Below are positions 11,626-63,816 of a stretch of DNA of 64,000 nt, one piece after another. The notes beneath the pieces are model-generated. The model was not told the origin of the DNA and searched no databases. It saw nothing but the letters and a program-made list of their open reading frames with translations. The stretch is from Octopus vulgaris (taxonomy: Eukaryota). The stretch spans positions 19,344,001 to 19,408,000 of the forward strand of contig OX597831.1 of the NCBI GenBank assembly GCA_951406725.2. The letters are read 5' to 3'. The stretch's first letter is position 1, and each line of letters opens with the position of its first letter. A program made the position numbers and the translations under genes.

Positions 11626-14539
11626 TACATATATACACACACATATTAAATGTTCTACTATATTATATTGTAAATCGAAAGATGTGTCCTTTAATATATG
11701 ATGAGTAAAATTTCAGCCATTTAATTTGGGGGAGAACTTAGCTATGAAATATTTTTTCATATTCCTCCTGAAAGAGCTGTCGTTCTTCGGACATTTGTAG
11801 AAGGGAAAGATCTAAAATTTCCTTCTCCACACGTAGCTAGGTGTGTACTTAGTGGTATTTTGCGTAGTTCTTCCTGCCGAATATGTTGTCGGTGAATCCT
11901 GGCTCACTGGCTCAAAGAATTACCAGTTTCACCTAAGTAATTCTCCTTGCACGTGGGGCAGGTTATGCAGTATTTAACGTTCTGCGTCTTGCAGTTCATA
12001 CCTGTATTTACTTTGAATACGTAACCACTTTTAAATCTCATCTCTCTGTTTCCCTCTATGTATTTGTAGGTGGGGGTTGCTGCAGATCCCACATCTACCA
12101 TCTCCGCACTCTTTTGCAAATAATTCCGTTTTAGTTTCCGAAGAGAATTTCGCTCTTGTTAGGTGTTTCTTTAGGTTTTTGTCCTGTCGTCTACTGTTTT
12201 TTATGCTATATTTGTTTAATATGTTTTTCATTTTGGGGCTTTGTACGGCTATTGGTAGGTTTGAATGTATGGTTTGGAAGATGTTGGTAACTCCAGGGTT
12301 GTGCGTGTTTATAAAAGGGATAATGTTTTCTTTGTTTTTTGTTTTGGGTGTCCTGATTTGTGCGATGTCTAGTTTAAATGCTCTTGTGATTCCATTTTCT
12401 ATTAGTTTAAGGGGGTATTTTTGCTCTAGGAGGAAGTTTTTGAGTTCATCTAGTCTTATTAGTCGTATTTGTGAATCAGTTACTATGCTACATATTCGTC
12501 TTGCCATACTATATGGGATGTTTCTTTTTGTGTGGGATGGGGGGGCAGGAGTGGAAAATTAGATATTGGTGTGTGTCAGTTTTTGTAGTGGATGTCTGTT
12601 GTGACGATGGAGCTGTGTATTTTGATGTTGATGTCTAGGAAGGGAAGTTCATTGTGGCTGGTATCTATTGTGAAGTTGATAGATGGGTGCAGCGTATTGA
12701 GGATGTTGTGGAATGTTCGTAGGTCTTCTGATCTGTTCCAAAAGATGAAGCAGTCATCGAGGTAGCGTTCCCACTTTTACTTCACTGAAGTTGTGTTCGA
12801 AGACTTTCCCTATTTCATCGTATAGTTTGTTCTCCAGGAAACCCATCATCAGGTTGGCATATGAAGGTACGAATTTTGTACCCATAGCCGTGCCTTTTAT
12901 CTGTCGGTATGTCTTGTTGTTGAATGAGAATGTATTTTCTTCGAGTATTAGTTGGGTGGGTTGGGTGATAAAGTTTGTCTTGAAGCGTTCGTCTATAAGT
13001 TCTCTGTATTTTTCTATCGATTGTTTTATTGCTTCTAGACCTAGGGTATGTGGTATGTTTGTGTATAGATTTATGACATCAAAGCTTGCAAGTATGATGT
13101 TTTTCGGGACTGTATTTCAAATGTGTGTGAGGAAGTCTATGTCATCCCTTATGTAGCTTGGTATCTGTGGGCATAAAGGTTTGAGGAGTATATCTATGAA
13201 GTGGTTTAGTTGTTGTGTTGGTGCCTGGGGTCCTGTCACTTTTGGTCTCATTGTGAGGTCTGCAGGCATTTGTATTCTTATATAGTGGTTCCTCTGTTCC
13301 TTTATGGCTCTCTGTATTTCAGAGCTTTTATGAATTTTTGGTAATCCATAAAAATTGCTTTCTTTGGTTCTTGAGTTGCATAGATAGTCTTTCTCCTTAT
13401 CTGTAAAGGAGTCCTGATATTCATTGACTAAATTTTAATTTCTTTTATTGTTGCTTTCTCCGGTGGTGTTGGTTCCTCTTTATAGTATGTCTGGTTGTTC
13501 CGTAACTCCAGTATCTTTTCTTTGTAGTAATCTGTATCCATAATTACTATTGCTCCACCTTTGTCAGCTTCTTTTATAATGATTGACTTGTCATTTTTCA
13601 GTTTTTGTAAGGCTTGTTTTTCTCCTCTGCAGAGATTCTGTTTGCATTTGTGTGTGTTGAGAGGGAATTTGGATATTGTCTCTATGTATGCGTCAAGGTG
13701 TTTGTCACTTCCCTTGTAAGGGGTGAAATGGGATTTTTTTCTTATGATTGAGTTATCTTCTGTTTCATTTATTTTCAAAGAATTCCATAAGGCGGAAGTG
13801 GCGGCTGAAGTTGTCTATAACAGTTTTTAGTTCTATGAGGTTTGGAGTGGGTGTAGGTATAAATTTGAGGCCTTTTAGTTGTAGGTTCATTTCATTTCCG
13901 TCAAGTTCTCTTTTAGAAAAGTTTATCATTTTGGGGTCTATGTGTTTTGTGAGTTCATCCGGAATTTTTGGTGTATTGGGTCTGGAGTATGGTTGAAGTA
14001 TCCTCTCCCTAAAAAATGGGTTGTGTTGTTACGTCTCCAAATTCCATTTTCAGTTCTTAGGTTTTCTTGTAGTTGGGGTGGTCTGTGTGGTCTGTATGTG
14101 TTGTTTTGTCTTTGGTAGTTGTTTTCTTCCCATCTTCTGTGTTATTGAGCCAATATCTATTACTGGGGTTCAGGTTTCTTTGTGGGTAGGTGGAAGGTTC
14201 ATGTATTGTGTTTGTATTGTATTGATAGTGGGGGTTGTTTTTTATCCATCTTGTAAATTTGTGGGGTTGCATGGGGTTGGTGTTTGTGTGGTTTCGATTT
14301 CCTCGATGTTTGTTGTAGGTTATGTGTTGATTTCTATCCATTTGTTTATTGTTCCATGTGTGTGTCCTTTTAGGATGTCCAGTGTTATGTGTTGGTGGTT
14401 GTTCCTATTCTATTTGTTCTCTCCAAGTGTCATAGGTTGTTGGTTGTATGTATTGTGCTCGTCTTGCTGTTTGTGTGTTTGTTTTTGTGGGGTTTTTGGT
14501 TGATGGTTGTCTTTCATATTTTGTGTATCTGTTTTCTGT

Positions 14540-24889: not shown

Positions 24890-27688
24890 ATAATAATAAT
24901 AATAATAATAATAATTGTGTACAGTGCTCAGGTGCACTACAACTCATCTAAAGTGTATATATAATCAGGTGTAGTTTCGACGGATTTCGGGAAGCATGAG
25001 GGCCTTAAAGGATGCAGTGTCATGGCAGTCAACAACTGATGCAGGCAGTTTATTCCACGCTTCAGCAACCCTGAGCGTGAAAAAATGTTTCCGAAAGTCA
25101 TGGGAGCTGTGCTGTTTTCTGACTTTGTAGGCATGTCCACGTGTGTTAGACACATGGAGATCAAAAAGGTGTTCAGTGTTGTTGTTGGTGAGGTGGTTGA
25201 TAACCTTGTGGGTGTTTACCAAGTCCGTCGCCAGACGCCGGAGCTTCAGTGAATCCATGCCCAGGGAAACAAGGCGCTCAGAATATGGTAGGTGTCTGAT
25301 GGAGGGTATGCGTTTGGTTGCACGTCTCTGGACAGATTCCAGGAGGTCAATGTTCTGAGCAAGATAGGGATTCCAAACTGATGATGCGAATTCGAAGTGT
25401 GGTCGTACCATAGCTGTATGCAGTTTTAAATAGATGGCTGGAGAGCGGCTAACAAAAGTCTTGCTGAGTGATGCCAAGACACCCTCGGCCTTCTTGACAA
25501 TTTTAGAGATATGCTTTGTCCAACGCAAATCACTGCTGACAGTGATGCCTAGGTCACGCTCGCAAGAGGATTTCTTGATATCAGTGTTGTGGAGGGAGTA
25601 TGTGGACGCAGGGTTTTTTCTCCCAAAATGCATGGTGGTACGCTTGTCCACAGCCAGTTTCAGTTGCCAGTCTGTGATCCATTGCTGCATTGTGTCTAGG
25701 TCTGATTGCAGGAAAGAGTTGTAGACATCAGGATCAGTCCTCTTGATTTCAAGGTACAGCTTGATGTCGTCTGCATATTTCAATACTGTGGCATTCTTTA
25801 AATTGGCATCTATGTCATTAATGTATGCCACAAACAGGAGGGGACCAAGGACAGATCCCTGTGGTACACCCGATGACATCTCATATGGTGTAGAGTGCTG
25901 TCCTAGAACTGTGACTACCTCCTTTCGGCTGAGGATGAAGGATTTCAACCAGTTAAAAAGGTCATCCCCCACACCCATTGCAGAGAGTTTCACCATAAGC
26001 CTTTTGTGTGGCACAGAGTTGAAAGCCTTAGCAAAGTCAAGGTAGACAACATCCACCCATGAGCCACTGTCAGTGATCTGAGTAATGTCCTCAAGGAACT
26101 CGACAAGCTGGTCACTGCAGCTGGAGTTAGGGACAAATCCATATTGTGAGGGTCGGATGAGACTGTGAGAGCTCCAGAAGTTCCAGAGTGTTTCTCTGAC
26201 ACACGATTCCATCAGTTTTGCAATACAGCTAGTGAGACTGACTGGGCGATAGTTGACAGGTGATGTGCGGTCACCCTTTTTGAACAGAGGAATGACACTG
26301 GCAGTTTTCCACTGCTCCGGAGTAGCACCATTGTTGAGACAGTACTGGAAGAAAATAGAAAGCTGGTGTAAAAGGAAGTGCCTGCCACGTTTGAGAAGCA
26401 GGTATGTAACTCCATCGAGACCAGGGGAGGCATAGTTGTGCTTATTGTGAAGGTGACGTCGCAGCATTGCAGGTGTAAATTCCATAGTTGTTATGGAGTT
26501 TGCTGTTAGTGATGGTGAAGATGGTACATTTTGACTTTCGACAGTAAATATGTTTGCATAGCACTCGGCAATGAGTTCTGCGCATTCCTTGGGGTCGTCA
26601 GTGATCTGGTTCGTGTGAGGGTTGCGAAGAGGGCCCACTGGAGAGTGAGGTCTCTGCTTTGAATGCACATATTTCCAGAAAACCTTGCTGTCAGGATTGG
26701 CTGCTATGCACTGTTCAAATTCAAGCACTGCATTTTTTGTCACTTGCTTGAGATGGTTGGAGGATTTATTCCGCTTCTTCCTGTTGGTGTCTGATTTATG
26801 CAACTTGTATTCCTGTTCAGCAGTCCGACGTTCCTTCCTGGCAAGTCGGACCGCTGAAGTTTCCCAAATTGCCCTTTTGGGGCAGTTCTTTTTTTGTTTA
26901 TGTGGCACTGATGCTGCACATGCTGCCCATATTGAGTCCAGGAAACTCTGGAGTATAGTATTCACATCTCCAGAGTTGTAGAATTCACGCCAGTTTGGGT
27001 GCTGTAGTTCAGTGTGGTACAGGTTCCAATCTGCTCTCTTCCAATCGAAGGAAGCAGATTGGAGATGGTTCAGGTGTTTGTTGCCCGCAAGAGCCAGATT
27101 GGCGATGATCATAGCATGATCAGAGTCACCTAGAGGTTCCTCCGTAGTGCAATTGATAACCGCTTCAGGAGTTGTGGTGAAGAGCAGGTCCAAGGTGTTG
27201 TCGCCTCTTGTTGGAGAGGTGACTACTTGTGACCAGTTTGAGTCCAGCACAAGCTCAACAAAATCGTTTGCACTCTGTGGCCAACGGAAGGTTTCCCAAT
27301 CGATCTCAGGATGATTGAAATCGCCTGCAATAAACACATAAGTGGCTGTTTTCCTGGCTGCAGCTCGGAGGATGTTGCAAAGCTGTGTGTCCTGATGGTA
27401 ATTCGGGGGACGATAAACAACGCCAAGCAGGAGTGTTGACATGGTCATACGTACGTCACAGAAAAAAATTTCTTCTTGTGATTCGTTCAAATCGGCACAA
27501 GGAATTACCAAAAAATGTGAACGAACGTGGACCATCACACCACCACCACGGCGGTTAGTGCGGTCCTTACGGAAGAGGTTGTACCCCGTGATGTTGAAAA
27601 CCCCATCACAGAGTAAGGAATGCGCCCATGTTTCCGTGACAGTGATGAAGTCAGGGTCAACACTTCTGACGTAGGCGTTGAACAAATG
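24890..27688 (-). mobile_element. CR1-like LINE, 5'-truncated at the start of ORF2, with (TAT)n 3' tail
   Basis: APE motifs ITVTETW, GYNLFRKDR, GGGVM, GDFNHP, LDLLF, SDH; RT motifs YRPVSLTS, LDFAKAF, GVPQGSVLGPLLF, YADD; CR1-type ERDLG, TRGH and FFTLRVAEAWNKLP; short 3' UTR then AAT repeats. Confidence 0.96.
24965..27688 (-). CDS. LINE ORF2 (AP endonuclease plus reverse transcriptase), ~905 uninterrupted codons; true N-terminus missing
   Basis: ORF 24965..27739; its first ~17 residues are translated microsatellite. Confidence 0.9.
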   Translation of the reverse strand, partial: HLFNAYVRSVDPDFITVTETWAHSLLCDGVFNITGYNLFRKDRTNRRGGGVMVHVRSHFLVIPCADLNESQEEIFFCDVRMTMSTLLLGVVYRPPNYHQDTQLCNILRAAARKTATYVFIAGDFNHPEIDWETFRWPQSANDFVELVLDSNWSQVVTSPTRGDNTLDLLFTTTPEAVINCTTEEPLGDSDHAMIIANLALAGNKHLNHLQSASFDWKRADWNLYHTELQHPNWREFYNSGDVNTILQSFLDSIWAACAASVPHKQKKNCPKRAIWETSAVRLARKERRTAEQEYKLHKSDTNRKKRNKSSNHLKQVTKNAVLEFEQCIAANPDSKVFWKYVHSKQRPHSPVGPLRNPHTNQITDDPKECAELIAECYANIFTVESQNVPSSPSLTANSITTMEFTPAMLRRHLHNKHNYASPGLDGVTYLLLKRGRHFLLHQLSIFFQYCLNNGATPEQWKTASVIPLFKKGDRTSPVNYRPVSLTSCIAKLMESCVRETLWNFWSSHSLIRPSQYGFVPNSSCSDQLVEFLEDITQITDSGSWVDVVYLDFAKAFNSVPHKRLMVKLSAMGVGDDLFNWLKSFILSRKEVVTVLGQHSTPYEMSSGVPQGSVLGPLLFVAYINDIDANLKNATVLKYADDIKLYLEIKRTDPDVYNSFLQSDLDTMQQWITDWQLKLAVDKRTTMHFGRKNPASTYSLHNTDIKKSSCERDLGITVSSDLRWTKHISKIVKKAEGVLASLSKTFVSRSPAIYLKLHTAMVRPHFEFASSVWNPYLAQNIDLLESVQRRATKRIPSIRHLPYSERLVSLGMDSLKLRRLATDLVNTHKVINHLTNNNTEHLFDLHVSNTRGHAYKVRKQHSSHDFRKHFFTLRVAEAWNKLPASVVDCHDTASFKALMLPEIRRNYT

Positions 27689-27994
27689 TATATATATATA
27701 TGTATGTATGTGTGTGTGTGTATGTATATATACACACACACATTTTAATCTTTTTTGTACTGAAGAGGAAACGATATATAGATAGATAGATACATATAAG
27801 CAGATATAAATATATAAATAGATATATGTGTGTGTGTGTGCGTGTGTGTGTGTCTACGCCTATGTGTGTGAGTATGTATACATAATGTTATAATTATAAT
27901 GATACTACAACTTCGTCAACTTCTGTATAATAAACAATTACTAATATTTTCGTATTGAGAATTCTATGAGTGTAATTTAGAATTGATGATTTGA

Positions 27995-47605: not shown

Positions 47606-49960
47606 AACAAACTACGTTCGAAGATACTGTACCTGATATGGGCGGTAATGCCTTGCCGGTCTATGGTCGACCTTCAACAAACCGGGAAGGCACAAACACT
47701 CTGTCTTCACATTTGCTGCGTGAGACATGTTTTAATGTTGACGAGCTTGCCGACAATGAGCCAAAGCTCCTTCCAGAACAGAAGTTCGCTTACAACTCCG
47801 TTGTTAATTCAGTCCGGGCCAAAGCTGGGGGGATTTTTTTCTGGACGCTCCTGGGGGCACTGGGAAAACTTTTGTCAACAAATTAATATTGGCTGAGATT
47901 AGGCAAACACAAGGCATTGCCCTAGCTGTGGCATTATCTGGAATTGCGGCTACTTTGTTGCCAGGCGGCAGGACAGCTCACTCCACTTTCAAGCTCCTGC
48001 TTGACTTAGCGAAGACTGAGACACCAACTTGCAAAATCAGTAACAGCTCCGGTCTTCAGACGATGCAAGCTTATCGTTTGGGATGAATGCACGATGGCCC
48101 ACAGAGGTGCTCTTGAGGCACTAGATAGATCTCTCAGAGACACCAAACACTCTTCAGCTCCCATGGGAGGCATAACACTTCTTCTTTCAGAGGACTTCCG
48201 ACAAACACTTCCCGTTATTCCCAAAGGGACTAGAGTTGATGCAGTAAGTCCGTGTCTTAAGTCATCCACAGTGTGGCCACTGGTGAAGACTCTCAAACTT
48301 CACACCAATATGCGAGCTCATATGCGACGTGATATCACATCAGCAGCATTTTCTCACACCCTCCTTGCACTTGGCGAAGGCAAAATACCAGGGGATGAAA
48401 ATGGTAATATTGCCATCGATTCCATTTGTACCATTGTTAAAACGCCTTCTGATCTCTGAGATGCAGTGTCCCAGATCTACAAGCTAATTATCAGAATATG
48501 GATTGGATTGGCCAAAGGGCTATTCTGGCCCCGAGAAATAAAACTGTTCATCATATTAATGATGAAATGCTAAAACTCATTCCTGGGGATGTCTATATAT
48601 ATATAGGTCTATCGATACAACTCCTGACCTAGAGGACGTCATCAACTATCAAATAGAGGTACTCAATTCCTTTGAGCCCCTTCGACTACCACCACACATT
48701 CTCAAACTTAAAGTTGGTGCCCCTATAGTGCTCATTAGAAATTTGGTTCCCCCAAAACAATGCAATGGCACACGTTTGATCGTTAAGTCCTTATCTCCCA
48801 ATCTGACTGAGGCCACCATTATCACAGGGTGCGGTCGAGGCAACGTTGTGCTCATACCTAGGATGCATCTTTTCCCATCAGGAGCAGACCTACCTTTCAT
48901 ATTTCGGAGGTCCCAGTTCCAAGTAAGGCCATGTTTCGCAATGTCAATTAACAAAGCGCAGGGTCAAACACTGTCTGTGGCGGGAATTCATTTGGGAGAG
49001 CCATGTTTCTCTCAAGGTCAGCTTTATGTTGCCTGCTCGCGTGTCGGCAGCAACAGTGATGCTTTCGCATTCGTTCCACAACGAAAAACAAAAAATATTG
49101 TGTACAATGATGTTTTATATGATTACTACGTTTCGTCATTTTCGAGCACGTTAGTATTTCACTTACATACGACTCTCTTTTATGATAGCATTTACATTTT
49201 TAGGCGTTTCATTACATTAATTCACACTTAACCAACACCTGTCCTTCGCTCACCTCTATTTCTACCCATTCATCATCAAACCACCAGCCTCATCTTCTAT
49301 ATCCAAAGTACATGACACATCTACCCCCTACATCTACACTCTCACTGTTAAAGTTTACATAAGCGACAACACGATCGCAACATACACTTTGGAAACTAAG
49401 CAACAGATCATTTTATACAACAACAAATTTAATCATAACGCCCATCAATGAAAACATCTCCACCACTGCGTTGTGATTCATCTATTCAGCACCACTACAG
49501 TCTCGCCGGTCTGACATATGGTGAGTAGATGCTATTGTTCTATATTTTATAAATTACCCATATTTACTTACCCATGCTTCATTCTTCTCTTGCCTACATA
49601 GGGCATCCATTCTCTTTTAACACAGTATGAAGTTTTGTAACAGCACATCCGCTGCCGTTCGTGGAAAACGAAGAGACCCTTTTCACCTGCGAACGTTTTA
49701 CACCGCCTTCCACGACTATCAAATTCTTACACTTACGAGAACAATAACATGGCTCTTTTCAAGGCAACCTCGCATTCAATTCTTACACCATTCTACGAAG
49801 GGGTAGGAACCCCTTTACACGGCTTTCTATACACTTACAAATACATTCATTCGCCGGAAACTTATATCAATATTTGCCTGAATAATCATCATAATTCAGT
49901 GCAATCATTAACAGTACTTTCAAGCAATTCAGCCCCGAGCATCGCCAGGCAATTCTGCTA

Positions 49961-50017: not shown

Positions 50018-50020
<3 letters not shown>

Positions 50021-50214
50021 GGAAGGTTTTCAAAAATAAACAAAAGACGAAGGCTGGTGGAGTACAAACAAACAAATGCATTAGTATAGCGCTCAGGAAT
50101 AGAAATAGAAAAAGTATTTTACGTTTCGAGCCTACGCTCTTCGACAGAAAGATACACAGAAAAAAACAAGGAGAGAAAAAAATGCGTGTAGGAGCTAACG
50201 ATCTATCATGGCCG
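50018..50214 (-). mobile_element. Family A short element in (TA)n with a CUGUCGA hammerhead-like motif
   Basis: Reverse complement of 50117-50150: ttt-CTGTCGA-a-gagc-gtag-gctc-GAAAC-GTA-aaa. Confidence 0.75.
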
Positions 50215-50238
50215 TATATGCATATATATATATATATG

Positions 50239-50609
50239 AGTATACTTTACGTTGTCGAGCGGTTACTGTTTACATCTCGTTCAGAGTTTTATTATCGCTT
50301 GCAGACAGTTTTTCGAAATCAGTGACGGAAGTAACTGGGAAAAACAATAAATAAATATTTGCAAACAGGTCTCCCTTCATCGAAAACCGGTGATTGCCGT
50401 ACGCCGAAGACAGGCAAATACTTAGAAACTGCAGTCCATGCGTGTCACTTAGGTTTACGAGAGAGGGATGACTTCCCTTTGCAAATACCATAAGGTCCTA
50501 GAAAGTGTGCCTAAAGCCAGCTGGAGACGATGATCTCTTGAGGTTAAAAGCTACAGTAACATCCACCCTTAGTGGTTAGCCATATTTTGATGGCTAGTAT
50601 ACTTTACGT
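50239..50609 (+). mobile_element. Retrozyme-like monomer (357 nt plus 14-nt terminal redundancy) in (TA)n
   Basis: agtatactttacgt repeated at 50239-50252 and 50596-50609; collinear homology with the 358-nt unit at 62807-63773; internal hammerhead. Confidence 0.85.
50384..50456 (+). ncRNA. Extended type I hammerhead, slightly decayed
   Basis: aaacc-ggtga-ttgc-cgtacg-CCGAAGA-cagg-caaata-ctta-GAAA-ctgca-GTC-catgcg-tg-tcact-ta-ggttt; palindromic helix III ACTGCAGT; predicted cleavage after 50436. Confidence 0.8.
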
Positions 50610-50617
50610 ATATATAT

Positions 50618-50678
<61 letters not shown>

Positions 50679-61164: not shown

Positions 61165-62962
61165 TGTTTTAATTATTTTCGTTCACTTTACACTAATCTT
61201 CAGAATATAACAGAGGTGTCTTACATTTTCAATAAGATCAGGATTGATCAATTTCTTTCTGTGGAAGGTAGAAATGACATAAATGAAATCTTTCTCAAAT
61301 ACGTCACCTCACGTAAATTATGCCCATATCTATTGTAACCCCTCTTTCCGAAGATAATCTATCTTTGGGAAATCTGAATCCATAGTGTTAATCTCTCCCC
61401 CACCAAAAAACTATCGATTCCAATTCGCCACTGCTGTTGTGCTGTGCCTGTGATAAAAGATTATAGTTTGGATCAAAAATCAAAATTTTCGAAGCCGTGT
61501 GTACGACCTTTGAGTTCCAAGTCTGCTTCGATAATGATGTATGATTTTCCAGGAATGGTGACTGTTTGGGCTGTCTATTTTATGATGGAAAATTGTTAAT
61601 GAGTGCTCTTTCAACTCTGTGTAGTACAAGGTAGTATCTTGAGAGGGGAAATGTTTCACAGTGTCCATTACTGCTTTTTTGTTATTTGAAACAAAATCAG
61701 TGCTGATCGTTCAGGTTTTGTCTGTAAAAGCGTTCCAGTTTTGGTCGTACCATATTTCCTGCAATTGGTGTATTATTTAGGATAAGAACATAGAAAATCA
61801 TCTCACCTTTTGAACTGAAGACTGAATATTTTCTAAACACCAACATAATTATGTTCCCCAGTTTTTTTTTTGGTTTTTTTTTATAAAGTCAGTGCAAAGG
61901 AACATCTCACAATGGATATATGCCCTGCCTAAGTATTAGCGACAATACTGGTCTTTTGCAGTCATACTAAAAGCTGGAATGACTGACATAGTATTGTTGA
62001 CATTCAGAATTGCTTCAAACAAGAATCATTGCCGACAGTTCTTGTTACACCTAGTTCAGAAATAATTCCTTATCAAGCCACCATCATCTTATAAACACAC
62101 CAATCCACCACGGACACCTGTAAGACACCACACCAAAATCCGAACACACTGATAATCCAAATGTTACGTGACTGATTTCTAATATCTCATGAGAAACGTT
62201 ACGACAGAGCGTCGTCGATTCAGGGTGTGTGCATTAGTTCCAATCTGTGCCTTACTGAGAATCTATAAATATTTTGCACTCTATTTCAATCCTGAACAAC
62301 GAACTCCGAAATCATCTCAATAATCCGGCACATGACAGGGGCTGTTTTTTTTTACTTTAGATTGTCGAAAATATTTCGCCATTATGGATAATGAGGAGAG
62401 CTCCAAACATTCAAAATAATGTCAATACCATATTGGTATTTATCTTAAGCTAACAAATAAATTGCATGAAACGTCAGGTGTGACCAAAATAATCATTTCG
62501 TCCCTAAATAAATTTGTTTTAATAAGTGTACAACAAAGGAGACTTTGGAGCACATTTATCGATTAAAAAGTGAATAAACAAAAGTAATCGATACATACGT
62601 GTGTGTGTGTGTACATGTGCGTGTGACCGTTTAAGCGAAGTTGGTGTGTTCACAGTGCCAAACTCTGATAATACCCCCGACCATTCTCTTTTACTTCTCG
62701 TCTTGACTGCTACTCATAATTGTAATTCAGTTCTGGTCGCAGATTTATTGAAATTACATCCTTACGATACATACATGTATATATATATAAATATATATAT
62801 ATATATAACAAAAGGGACATTAGCCATTTGAATGTGGCTAGGGACAGGGCAGGGCGGTGGGGGTGTTACTGATGCATTTAGCCCCAGGCGATCATCAACG
62901 TCACCAGATAGGCTTGACACCATCACGGTGTCCTCTATCCTGCAAAGGGAGATCATTCCCCG

Positions 62963-63038
62963 AAGAAGCGGATGCCACATACGGACCCAGGTTTCAAGGT
63001 GTTTGCCTCTCGTCAACGTATGGTAGGCACCGCCCCTC
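62963..63038 (-). ncRNA. Extended type I hammerhead ribozyme (U3 core variant), copy 1
   Basis: Reverse complement: catacg-TTGACGA-gagg-caaaca-cctt-GAAA-cc-tg-g-GTC-cgtatg, with extended helix I. Confidence 0.88.
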
Positions 63039-63495
63039 GACGAACAACTCTCTGTGCAGGATATTTATATATAGATTTTCACGTAAATACATTTACTGAT
63101 TTCGAAAATCTGTTCGACAGCAATAATAATTCTCTAAACGAGATATAGACAGTAACTGCTCCATAACAAAAGCGACATTAGCCATTTGAATATGGCTAGG
63201 GACAGGGCAGGGCGGTGGAATGATCTCCCTTTGCAGGATAGAGGACACCGAGATGGTGTCAAGCCTATCTGGTGACGTTGATGATCGCCTGGGGCTAAAT
63301 GCATCAATAACACCCCCACCGCCCTGCCCTGTCCCAAGCCACATTCAAATGGCTAATGTCCCTTTTGTTATGGAGCAGTTACTGTCTATATCTCGTTTAG
63401 AGAATTATTATTGCTGTCGAACAGATTTTCGAAATCAGTAAATGTATTTACGTGAAAATCTATATATAAATATCCTGCACAGAGAGTCGTTCGTC

Positions 63496-63571
63496 GAGGG
63501 GCGGTGCCTACCATACGTTGACGAGAGGCAAACACCTTGAAATCTGGGTCCGTATGTGGCATCCGCTTCTT
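63496..63571 (+). ncRNA. Extended type I hammerhead ribozyme (U3 core variant), copy 2
   Basis: gaggggcgg-tgcc-tac-catacg-TTGACGA-gagg-caaaca-cctt-GAAA-tc-tg-g-GTC-cgtatg-t-ggca-t-ccgcttctt; predicted cleavage after 63550. Confidence 0.88.
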
Positions 63572-63771
63572 CGGGGAATGATCTCCCTTTGCAGGATAGA
63601 GGACACCGTGATGGTGTCAAGCCTATCTGGTGACGTTGATGATCGCCTGGGGCTAAATGCATCAGTAACACCCCCACCGCCCTGCCCTGTCCCTAGCCAC
63701 ATTCAAATGGCTAATGTCCCTTTTGTTATGGAGCAGTTACTGTCTATATCTCGTTTAGAGAATTATTATTG

Positions 63772-63816
<45 letters not shown>

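Follow-up and report, generated by a model that had tools for sequence, protein, structure and literature searches.

What kind of element occupies positions 50239..50609 of the plus strand in the window, the whole 64,000-nt stretch of Octopus vulgaris DNA analysed here, why does it begin and end with the same 14 nucleotides, and what moved it? An initial annotation had read the locus as one monomer of a retrozyme with a hammerhead ribozyme, divergent from a related unit near 62.8 kb, with a 14-nt redundancy left by reverse transcriptase going once around a circle. The copy is a slightly decayed, ordinary member of a hammerhead retrozyme family. The sequence AGTATACTTTACGT occurs in the window at 50239 and 50596 only, which gives the 357-nt period that the annotation had described. 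The insertion as a whole is single-armed, consists of the 357-nt unit plus 14 nt and belongs to subfamily A1, with 95% identity to the A1 consensus (18 differences). In unit numbering, position 1 is 50239 and the predicted cut falls after position 198. As a boundary, however, 50239 is one among many scattered 5′ ends: the 5′ copy of the 14-mer (50239..50252, +) is element sequence at such a truncation point, and the 3′ copy (50596..50609, +) finishes at a fixed family end, S1 (unit position ~15), the presumed start of reverse transcription. Between S1 and a second fixed family end, S2 (unit positions 57–61), lies a stretch of ~44 nt (50253..50299, +), the equivalent of the Penelope "tail." A (TA)n target flanks the insertion on the left (50222..50238) and on the right (50610..50675), with no strand assigned to either.

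The second copy in the window is a subfamily B element built of two arms placed back to back, whereas the copy at 50239 has one. Its inverted arm of 414 nt (62805..63218, −) ends at S1, and its direct arm of 557 nt (63217..63773, +), with the hammerhead core TTGACGA at 63518–63524 (+), ends at S2; a 161-aa open frame over the subfamily B unit gave no Pfam match. BLAST aligns the window copy with the 358-nt unit at 62805–63773 at 72% over 180 nt (E 8e-20), and a near full-length local alignment with the 62.8 kb unit scores 326, compared with 114 ± 9 (maximum 141) in 200 base shuffles. All the motifs listed in the annotation are present and collinear with that unit, and the two copies do form one family with distinct subfamilies, the A and B consensus sequences being 67–69% identical.

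The type I hammerhead of the window copy (50384..50456, +) can be read directly: a helix I whose distal and proximal parts are separated by an internal loop, the core CCGAAGA (50404–50410, +), which carries the U4C change, helix II with the loop CAAATA (50411–50424, +), the GAAA (50425–50428, +), a palindromic helix III (50428–50435, +) and the GTC, with the cut predicted after C50436. An Rfam search of the window at gathering thresholds gave no matches, and the assignment therefore rests on alignment, patterns and pair counts. The distal helix I proposed in the annotation, AAACC/GGTTT, and its 62.8 kb counterpart both form in predicted single folds of the two window copies, and loop II (CAAAYA) and GUC are retained in the hammerheads. 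The sequence ACCTGGGT that had been used in the comparison belongs to the 62.8 kb element's minus arm, and the plus arm has ATCTGGGT. In the window copy, G>A at 50438, adjoining the cut site, breaks the second helix I pair and C>T at 50422 turns a helix II G-C pair into G·U. The circular fold of this copy gives a z of −3.5, compared with −6.4 for the A1 consensus (40 shuffles). With its single, damaged hammerhead, the window copy is probably inactive.

Selection for structure across subfamilies, also claimed at the outset, was assessed in an alignment of 40 hand-picked hammerhead regions, 38 of them distinct, whose rows are related. Twenty pairs were fixed beforehand by the hammerhead model, and pair counts were compared with shuffled and slid controls; distal helix I was left out of the count because the alignment register shifts there. 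Paired cells make up 94.9% of 750, compared with 21–51% when partners are slid, and 10 of the 20 pairs show changes on both sides. There are 89 cells with both-side changes, compared with 31.5 ± 4.3 in shuffles, and 0 of 500 shuffles reached 89; neither the number of pairs with a both-side change (reached in 96 of 500 shuffles) nor the number of pair types (451 of 500) was above shuffles. The core 3–8 pair is C-G in 24 rows, U·G in 8 and U-A in 6, and is never broken; the 10.1–11.1 pair fails to form in 20 of 38. Although the four central letters of helix III are variable, they stay self-complementary in 74 of 76 cells, which fits cleavage as a dimer (PMC4209133), and the full active core is absent from monomer folds, as expected for a dimer-type helix III. 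Thus, the hammerhead helices, the core 3–8 pair and the palindromic helix III covary in these 38 related rows, in agreement with the claim. Five hammerhead regions were folded as monomers, and in four of them, but not in the window copy, the GUC cut triplet is predicted to pair with a GAC that lies within or next to the core; such pairing could protect monomers or circles from cutting.

The core letters also bear on the idea, raised in the annotation, that CCGAAGA arose in individual copies by decay from CTGAAGA. An A1-core pattern gave 174 matches, and in the first 100 matches listed, for which the core letters were counted by hand, CCG was found 64 times, CTG 25 times, TCG 9 times and CCA twice. 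Since T>C cannot arise independently in most copies, and since several insertions have CCG in each of their two arms, CCGAAGA is not per-copy decay; this U4C variant was propagated. U4C is seen also in CCGACGA and CCGATGA cores; it has been reported to lower activity in vitro and to be viable in a viroid (PMC3088659). The converse, CTGAAGA as pure CpG decay of CCGAAGA, was rejected: there are 25 CTG against 2 of the mirror product CCA, and two insertions have CTG in each arm, so that CTGAAGA is a real sister lineage as well.

In the 2.8-Gb host genome, the A unit as query gave 4,386 candidates, of which the best 40 were scored, and the 62.8 kb unit gave 2,037, the best 40 scored at 96–99% identity; the 30 loci fetched with the A unit show 90–94% identity, the window copy itself excepted. 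Exact hammerhead patterns found 553 canonical-core and at least 2,081 relaxed-core matches, and reversed patterns, as a control, found none. The loci sort into ~10 subfamilies with units of 352–360 nt and consensus rows 59–98% identical. Copies of subfamily D are 99–100% alike and those of B 96–99%, and A is older. Subfamily D (L091, L101–L107, L115), with a 353-nt unit, a canonical core, G10.1-C11.1 and often several units, is probably the most recently active. Two of its loci, L101 and L106, are apparently a single insertion duplicated ~1 Mb apart, and at L091 the 3′ flank recurs inverted at the 5′ side. A strongly diverged retrozyme-like copy at L134:15–264, found by profile search only (E 3e-6 and 0.01), suggests that older subfamilies exist. 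Throughout the family, copies have polarised ends and are scattered over many contigs, their units follow one another head to tail without a seam in arms of up to 1,261 nt, and the unit closes on itself without terminal repeats. The unit is low in GC and codes for no protein, with no open frame for a reverse transcriptase and GIY-YIG endonuclease. With its conserved type I hammerhead core and helices I–III, its head-to-tail units within 150–450 bp and its lack of coding capacity, the family has every testable feature of animal non-LTR retrozymes (PMC7229834).

The anatomy of the insertions suggests how such an RNA may be moved. We mapped the ends of 83 distinct insertions (90 loci less 7 duplicates), taking positions 5–19 as S1 and 54–65 as S2. 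Outer 3′ ends fall at S1 or S2 in 117 of 133 cases and outer 5′ ends in 0 of 33. As the A and B loci had been picked for full-length similarity, the count was repeated on 17 further insertions in genome order (25 loci less 8 overlapping), where all 25 of the 3′ ends lie at S1 or S2 and all eight pairs are S1+S2 (seven if the duplicated pair L101/L106 is merged). The two fixed 3′ ends are thus ~44 nt apart, and the 5′ ends are scattered, giving arms of 30–1,261 nt. Fifty of the 83 insertions are two-armed, with the arms facing outward. When both ends lie at a site (n = 38), the combination is S1+S2 in 37, S1+S1 in one and S2+S2 in none; the 12 other two-armed insertions have one end outside S1/S2. 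Target duplications of at least 10 nt were scored once the 35 insertions flanked on both sides by (TA)n had been set aside: they accompany 9 of 24 insertions with two arms and 1 of 24 with a single arm, compared with 1% of random flank pairs, and the true duplications of the family measure 11–16 nt. A (TA)n flank adjoins 52 of the 83 insertions, compared with 3.8% per background 20-mer. S2 arms of 91–237 nt are rare among the two-armed insertions (L002–L110). Penelope-like elements (PLEs) are described as leaving inverted truncated copies, a one-sided 30–40-bp tail and short duplications in microsatellite targets (PMC8557442, PMC3846280), and the tail was shown to span two internal start sites of reverse transcription (PMC11167929). 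The two fixed 3′ ends, inverted arms, duplications and AT-rich or microsatellite target of the octopus insertions are features of endonuclease-bearing (EN+) Penelope-like insertions.

These ends also revise the view that the 14-nt redundancy records a single trip round a circle, given the fixed start S1 at the 3′ end, the scattered 5′ ends and the range of arm lengths. In the window copy, copying would have begun at S1, run 371 nt and stopped, so that the overlap is simply arm length minus unit length. What holds of the original proposal is a template longer than one unit, as arms run across the cut site. In a set of 43 pattern-picked insertions with 66 arms, 21 of 66 arms are longer than one unit, the cut site is passed by 47 of the 54 arms that start at S1 or S2, and 3 of 66 arms have their 5′ end at that site. 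With most arms crossing that site and few 5′ ends there, cut linear monomers were not the main template. In subfamily B, divergence within an insertion (median 0.009–0.010) is lower than that between loci (0.027). Among locus-private variants, eight are shared between copies and 82 unshared; the likeness within insertions fits one donor for both arms, circle or multimer alike. L003, however, has arms from two subfamilies, A1 and A2, and in L026 the subfamily switches within one arm, ~30 nt downstream of the cut site. Because these two loci mix subfamilies, a single circle for each insertion does not account for every case. A template jump exactly at the cut site was rejected on the position of the L026 switch, the sole one mapped.

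Predicted structures surround the two starts. The S1–S2 stretch ranks among the best conserved parts of the unit across subfamilies. A predicted 7-bp helix encloses S1 (5′ strand, 50554..50560; 3′ strand, 50262..50268; both +), with seven of seven positions paired in 10 of 10 subfamily rows and one compensatory change. Just upstream of S1 lies the hairpin TAGCCA-N8-TGGCTA (50577..50596, +), whose GCCA/TGGC core is invariant in the ten subfamily rows and hence conserved, not covarying. A predicted two-part hairpin just downstream of S2 (50309..50344, +; unit ~71–106) shows five both-side changes and is, by analogy with PMC11167929, a candidate protein-binding signal. The background rate for such column pairs is 0.9% in the ten rows, and the pairing test is weaker there because the structures were derived from the same sequences.

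The genome carries many intact PLEs, and we searched among them for a partner. Sixty endonuclease loci, each taken with 1.5 kb of flank, were covered by BLAST and profile search: 30 with GIY-YIG, for the most part Neptune-type, and 30 from a second PLE group. In these two groups no autonomous PLE sharing the retrozyme terminal sequence was found; the only profile matches were the diverged copy in the L134 flank and a known B copy beside L146. The Neptune-type PLE, so assigned by the description of the Neptune/Nematis type in PMC8557442, has a 781-aa open frame, a cysteine motif before the endonuclease and a minimal U3-A8 hammerhead. Its two 3′ ends lie 38 nt apart in (TA)n, and one S1+S2-like inverted copy has one end of each kind. 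It has no detectable terminal sequence in common with the retrozyme, and the two tails are weakly alike (p 0.01 and 0.08, tested after the likeness had been seen). This Neptune-type PLE (L176–L191; e.g., L179 and L181) is young, has many 781-aa open frames and offers a candidate protein for in vitro tests. The second PLE group (L146–L175), which is very abundant (19,173 candidates), has open frames of up to ~980 aa, an asparagine-rich stretch and a long 3′ region; directly after the end of one of its copies sits a subfamily B retrozyme (L146/L038).

Several other elements were seen in the window. A broken Penelope-like element at 11700–14500 (−), recognised by eye from reverse transcriptase and GIY-YIG-like remnants with a weak RVT_1 match, has no sequence in common with the retrozyme unit. 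A 962-aa open frame at 24968–27853 (−) with endonuclease and reverse transcriptase domains belongs to a LINE-type element. Pif1-type helicase fragments at 48010–49228 (+), ~1 kb upstream of the retrozyme copy, are possibly a Helitron remnant. A separate short repeat at 50019–50212 (−) carries a minimal hammerhead-like motif at ~50113–50148; with a fixed end at 50019 adjoining (TA)n and the other end variable (453 candidates, best 40 scored), it looks like the end piece of another Penelope-like family. The window retrozyme occupies the flanking (TA)n of this repeat. A composite insertion of the two was rejected, as the repeat forms a family of its own and retrozyme sequence lies within 1.5 kb at only 1 of 29 other loci, and there not adjacent.

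We favor, with a probability of roughly 0.7, the reading that the family is a non-coding hammerhead retrozyme of 352–360 nt whose RNA is taken up by a Penelope-like reverse transcriptase/endonuclease, which nicks AT-rich DNA and initiates reverse transcription at two internal sites of an RNA template that exceeds one unit and is probably circular. Multi-unit insertions would be transcribed and their hammerheads would cut as dimers, a step proposed because helix III is kept as a palindrome. Ligation would then close the monomers into circles, which have been reported for the retrozymes of mussel and axolotl (PMC7229834). A Penelope-like protein would bind the structured region around S1/S2 and nick both strands ~11–16 nt apart, one nick priming at S1 and the other at S2, to leave two back-to-back arms, or one arm kept. 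Results from related systems qualify parts of this scheme. The anole element did not need cleavage in vitro, where the predominant substrate was uncut RNA and copying began at the same sites on both strands (PMC11167929); strict S1+S2 pairing is not what that system predicts. Among Xenopus retrozyme dimers, one of nine cleaved in vitro (10.64898/2026.07.22.740005).

The dispensability of cleavage and dominance of uncut RNA in the anole system lend weight to a variant that we regard as possible, at less than half the likelihood of the favored reading: the same Penelope-like machinery and start sites would act on an uncleaved, multimeric read-through transcript of a tandem copy, the hammerhead serving as a protein-bound fold or in some other step. 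The amplification of weakened cores (U4C, U3·G8 and the 10.1–11.1 mismatch) and the mosaic arm of L026 point in this direction. So would the stopping of S2 arms within 25 nt of S1 in 9 of 32 cases (p 0.03 against a uniform distribution), as twin priming on one multimer predicts, but the trend is not significant against S1 arms (3 of 21, p 0.2) and is suggestive only. Moreover, if 5′ truncation acted alone, arrays would lose length with every generation, but arms of 2–3.5 units are found in young subfamilies; such long young arms would need regeneration by a circle or by template jumps. Retention of the core and of the palindromic helix III across ~10 subfamilies also argues against an uncleaved template. 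Less likely is a reading without a self-standing retrozyme lineage, in which the copies derive as stubs from the terminal repeat (pLTR) belonging to an autonomous PLE yet to be found. Their insertion anatomy is that of PLE ends, the partner search covered two PLE groups and, in Xenopus, 24 of 57 retrozyme families match known elements, nearly all of them PLE ends (10.64898/2026.07.22.740005). Here, however, units join seamlessly head to tail, and S2 continues into the next unit, not into an open reading frame. PLE protein matches accompany 7 of 115 retrozyme loci, with no arm entering the reading frame as far as mapped, and the retrozyme hammerhead is of the canonical type with helix I/II loops, unlike the minimal one of the PLE seen here.

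Still more improbable is a LINE-type or other non-PLE reverse transcriptase, with the inversions produced by ordinary twin priming or fold-back. Target-primed copying in general leaves a fixed 3′ end and a scattered 5′ end, so this part of the anatomy would suit such an enzyme as well, and LINE-type reverse transcriptases occur in the window and at the loci; self-priming has, in addition, been proposed for PLE inversions (PMC3846280). The insertions, however, have no poly(A) or repeat tail, and they show two fixed internal ends in strict S1+S2 pairing. Their arms copy overlapping sequence and mostly differ in their 5′ ends, unlike fold-back palindromes. We give almost no credence to the idea that the 14-mer is a target-site duplication or that the unit spreads as a DNA-level satellite. 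The true duplications of the family are of similar length to the 14-mer, at 11–16 nt, but in 35 A-type loci element sequence flanks both sides in 33 of 49 exact 14-mer matches; these matches are internal to the element, so the 14-mer is not host target sequence, and a target-site duplication was rejected. A satellite is at odds with the dispersal of copies over many contigs and with their polarised ends.

On the favored reading, copying by a Penelope-like enzyme from two internal sites, we tentatively suggest an extension that we think rather doubtful as a whole. A dimeric enzyme may nick both strands and assign S1 to one nick and S2 to the other, on one circle or on two RNAs joined by the helix III palindrome, and copy round the circle from both. 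Slow cores (U4C, U3·G8 and the 10.1–11.1 mismatch) would be kept since a circle has to escape cutting, and the choice of pairing partner among the RNAs would lie with the palindrome. In L003 and L026, both mixed insertions, the joined subfamilies have identical helix III palindromes. If the extension is true, the 355-nt RNA would be a minimal, protein-free substrate exposing the unsolved integration step of Penelope.

Among openly available papers, with the 2026 preprint and PMC7229834 covered in their main text, our literature search found no description of this family or of paired fixed ends in retrozymes. Comparison with the animal non-LTR retrozymes of mussel (350–390 bp) and axolotl (330/350 bp) described by Cervera and de la Pena (2020, PMC7229834) shows a non-coding unit of similar kind, here ~355 nt, with GC below 50%, a canonical type I hammerhead, a short palindromic helix III, partial tandems, thousands of copies and coexisting PLEs. 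What sets the octopus family apart from that description is that many insertions are short and partially tandem or paired back to back, with 3′ ends fixed at two sites, and that core variants (U4C, U3-A8, U3·G8) mark whole subfamilies. Expression, cleavage and circles were demonstrated in that work and are proposed here for the octopus family. The C3-G8 to U3-A8 covariation, the U10.1-U11.1 mismatch and U4C have all been reported in natural hammerheads (Perreault et al. 2011, PMC3088659; Cervera and de la Pena 2014, PMC4209133); in contrast to those reports, the variants co-occur here in one genomic family, together with U3·G8 and C10.1·A11.1. The subfamilies are thus a natural mutational scan of the hammerhead core.

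With the EN+ PLE insertions described by Arkhipova et al. (2013, PMC3846280), Craig et al. (2021, PMC8557442) and Frangieh et al. (2024, PMC11167929), the octopus insertions share the inverted 5′-truncated copy, short target duplications, a 30–40-bp tail at one end, AT-rich or microsatellite targets and two internal starts downstream of the hammerhead, with the cut site read through. Unlike those elements, the retrozyme has no open reading frame, a tail of ~44 nt, a unit that is a closed period instead of a terminal repeat, and start sites ~176 and ~220 nt after the cut site. The strict S1+S2 pairing of the retrozyme family is likewise not among the in vitro PLE results cited here from PMC11167929. 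That published in vitro system, combined with a 355-nt RNA with mapped starts and covarying structure, makes the choice between circle and multimer and the S1+S2 asymmetry directly testable. Retrozymes have been argued to derive from PLEs by Li, Clavereau and Pollet (2026, 10.64898/2026.07.22.740005), who likewise describe monomers, dimers and multimers and reach the same conclusion as to the mobiliser; they argue from co-occurrence and from similarity between terminal repeats, for the most part in vertebrates. In the octopus family, for which no matching terminal repeat was found in two PLE groups, the evidence is instead insertion anatomy. Mobilisation of retrozymes by PLEs has been proposed from co-occurrence and terminal similarity; in the insertions described here the Penelope signature is itself visible, as two fixed starts, each used by one arm, and as target duplications.
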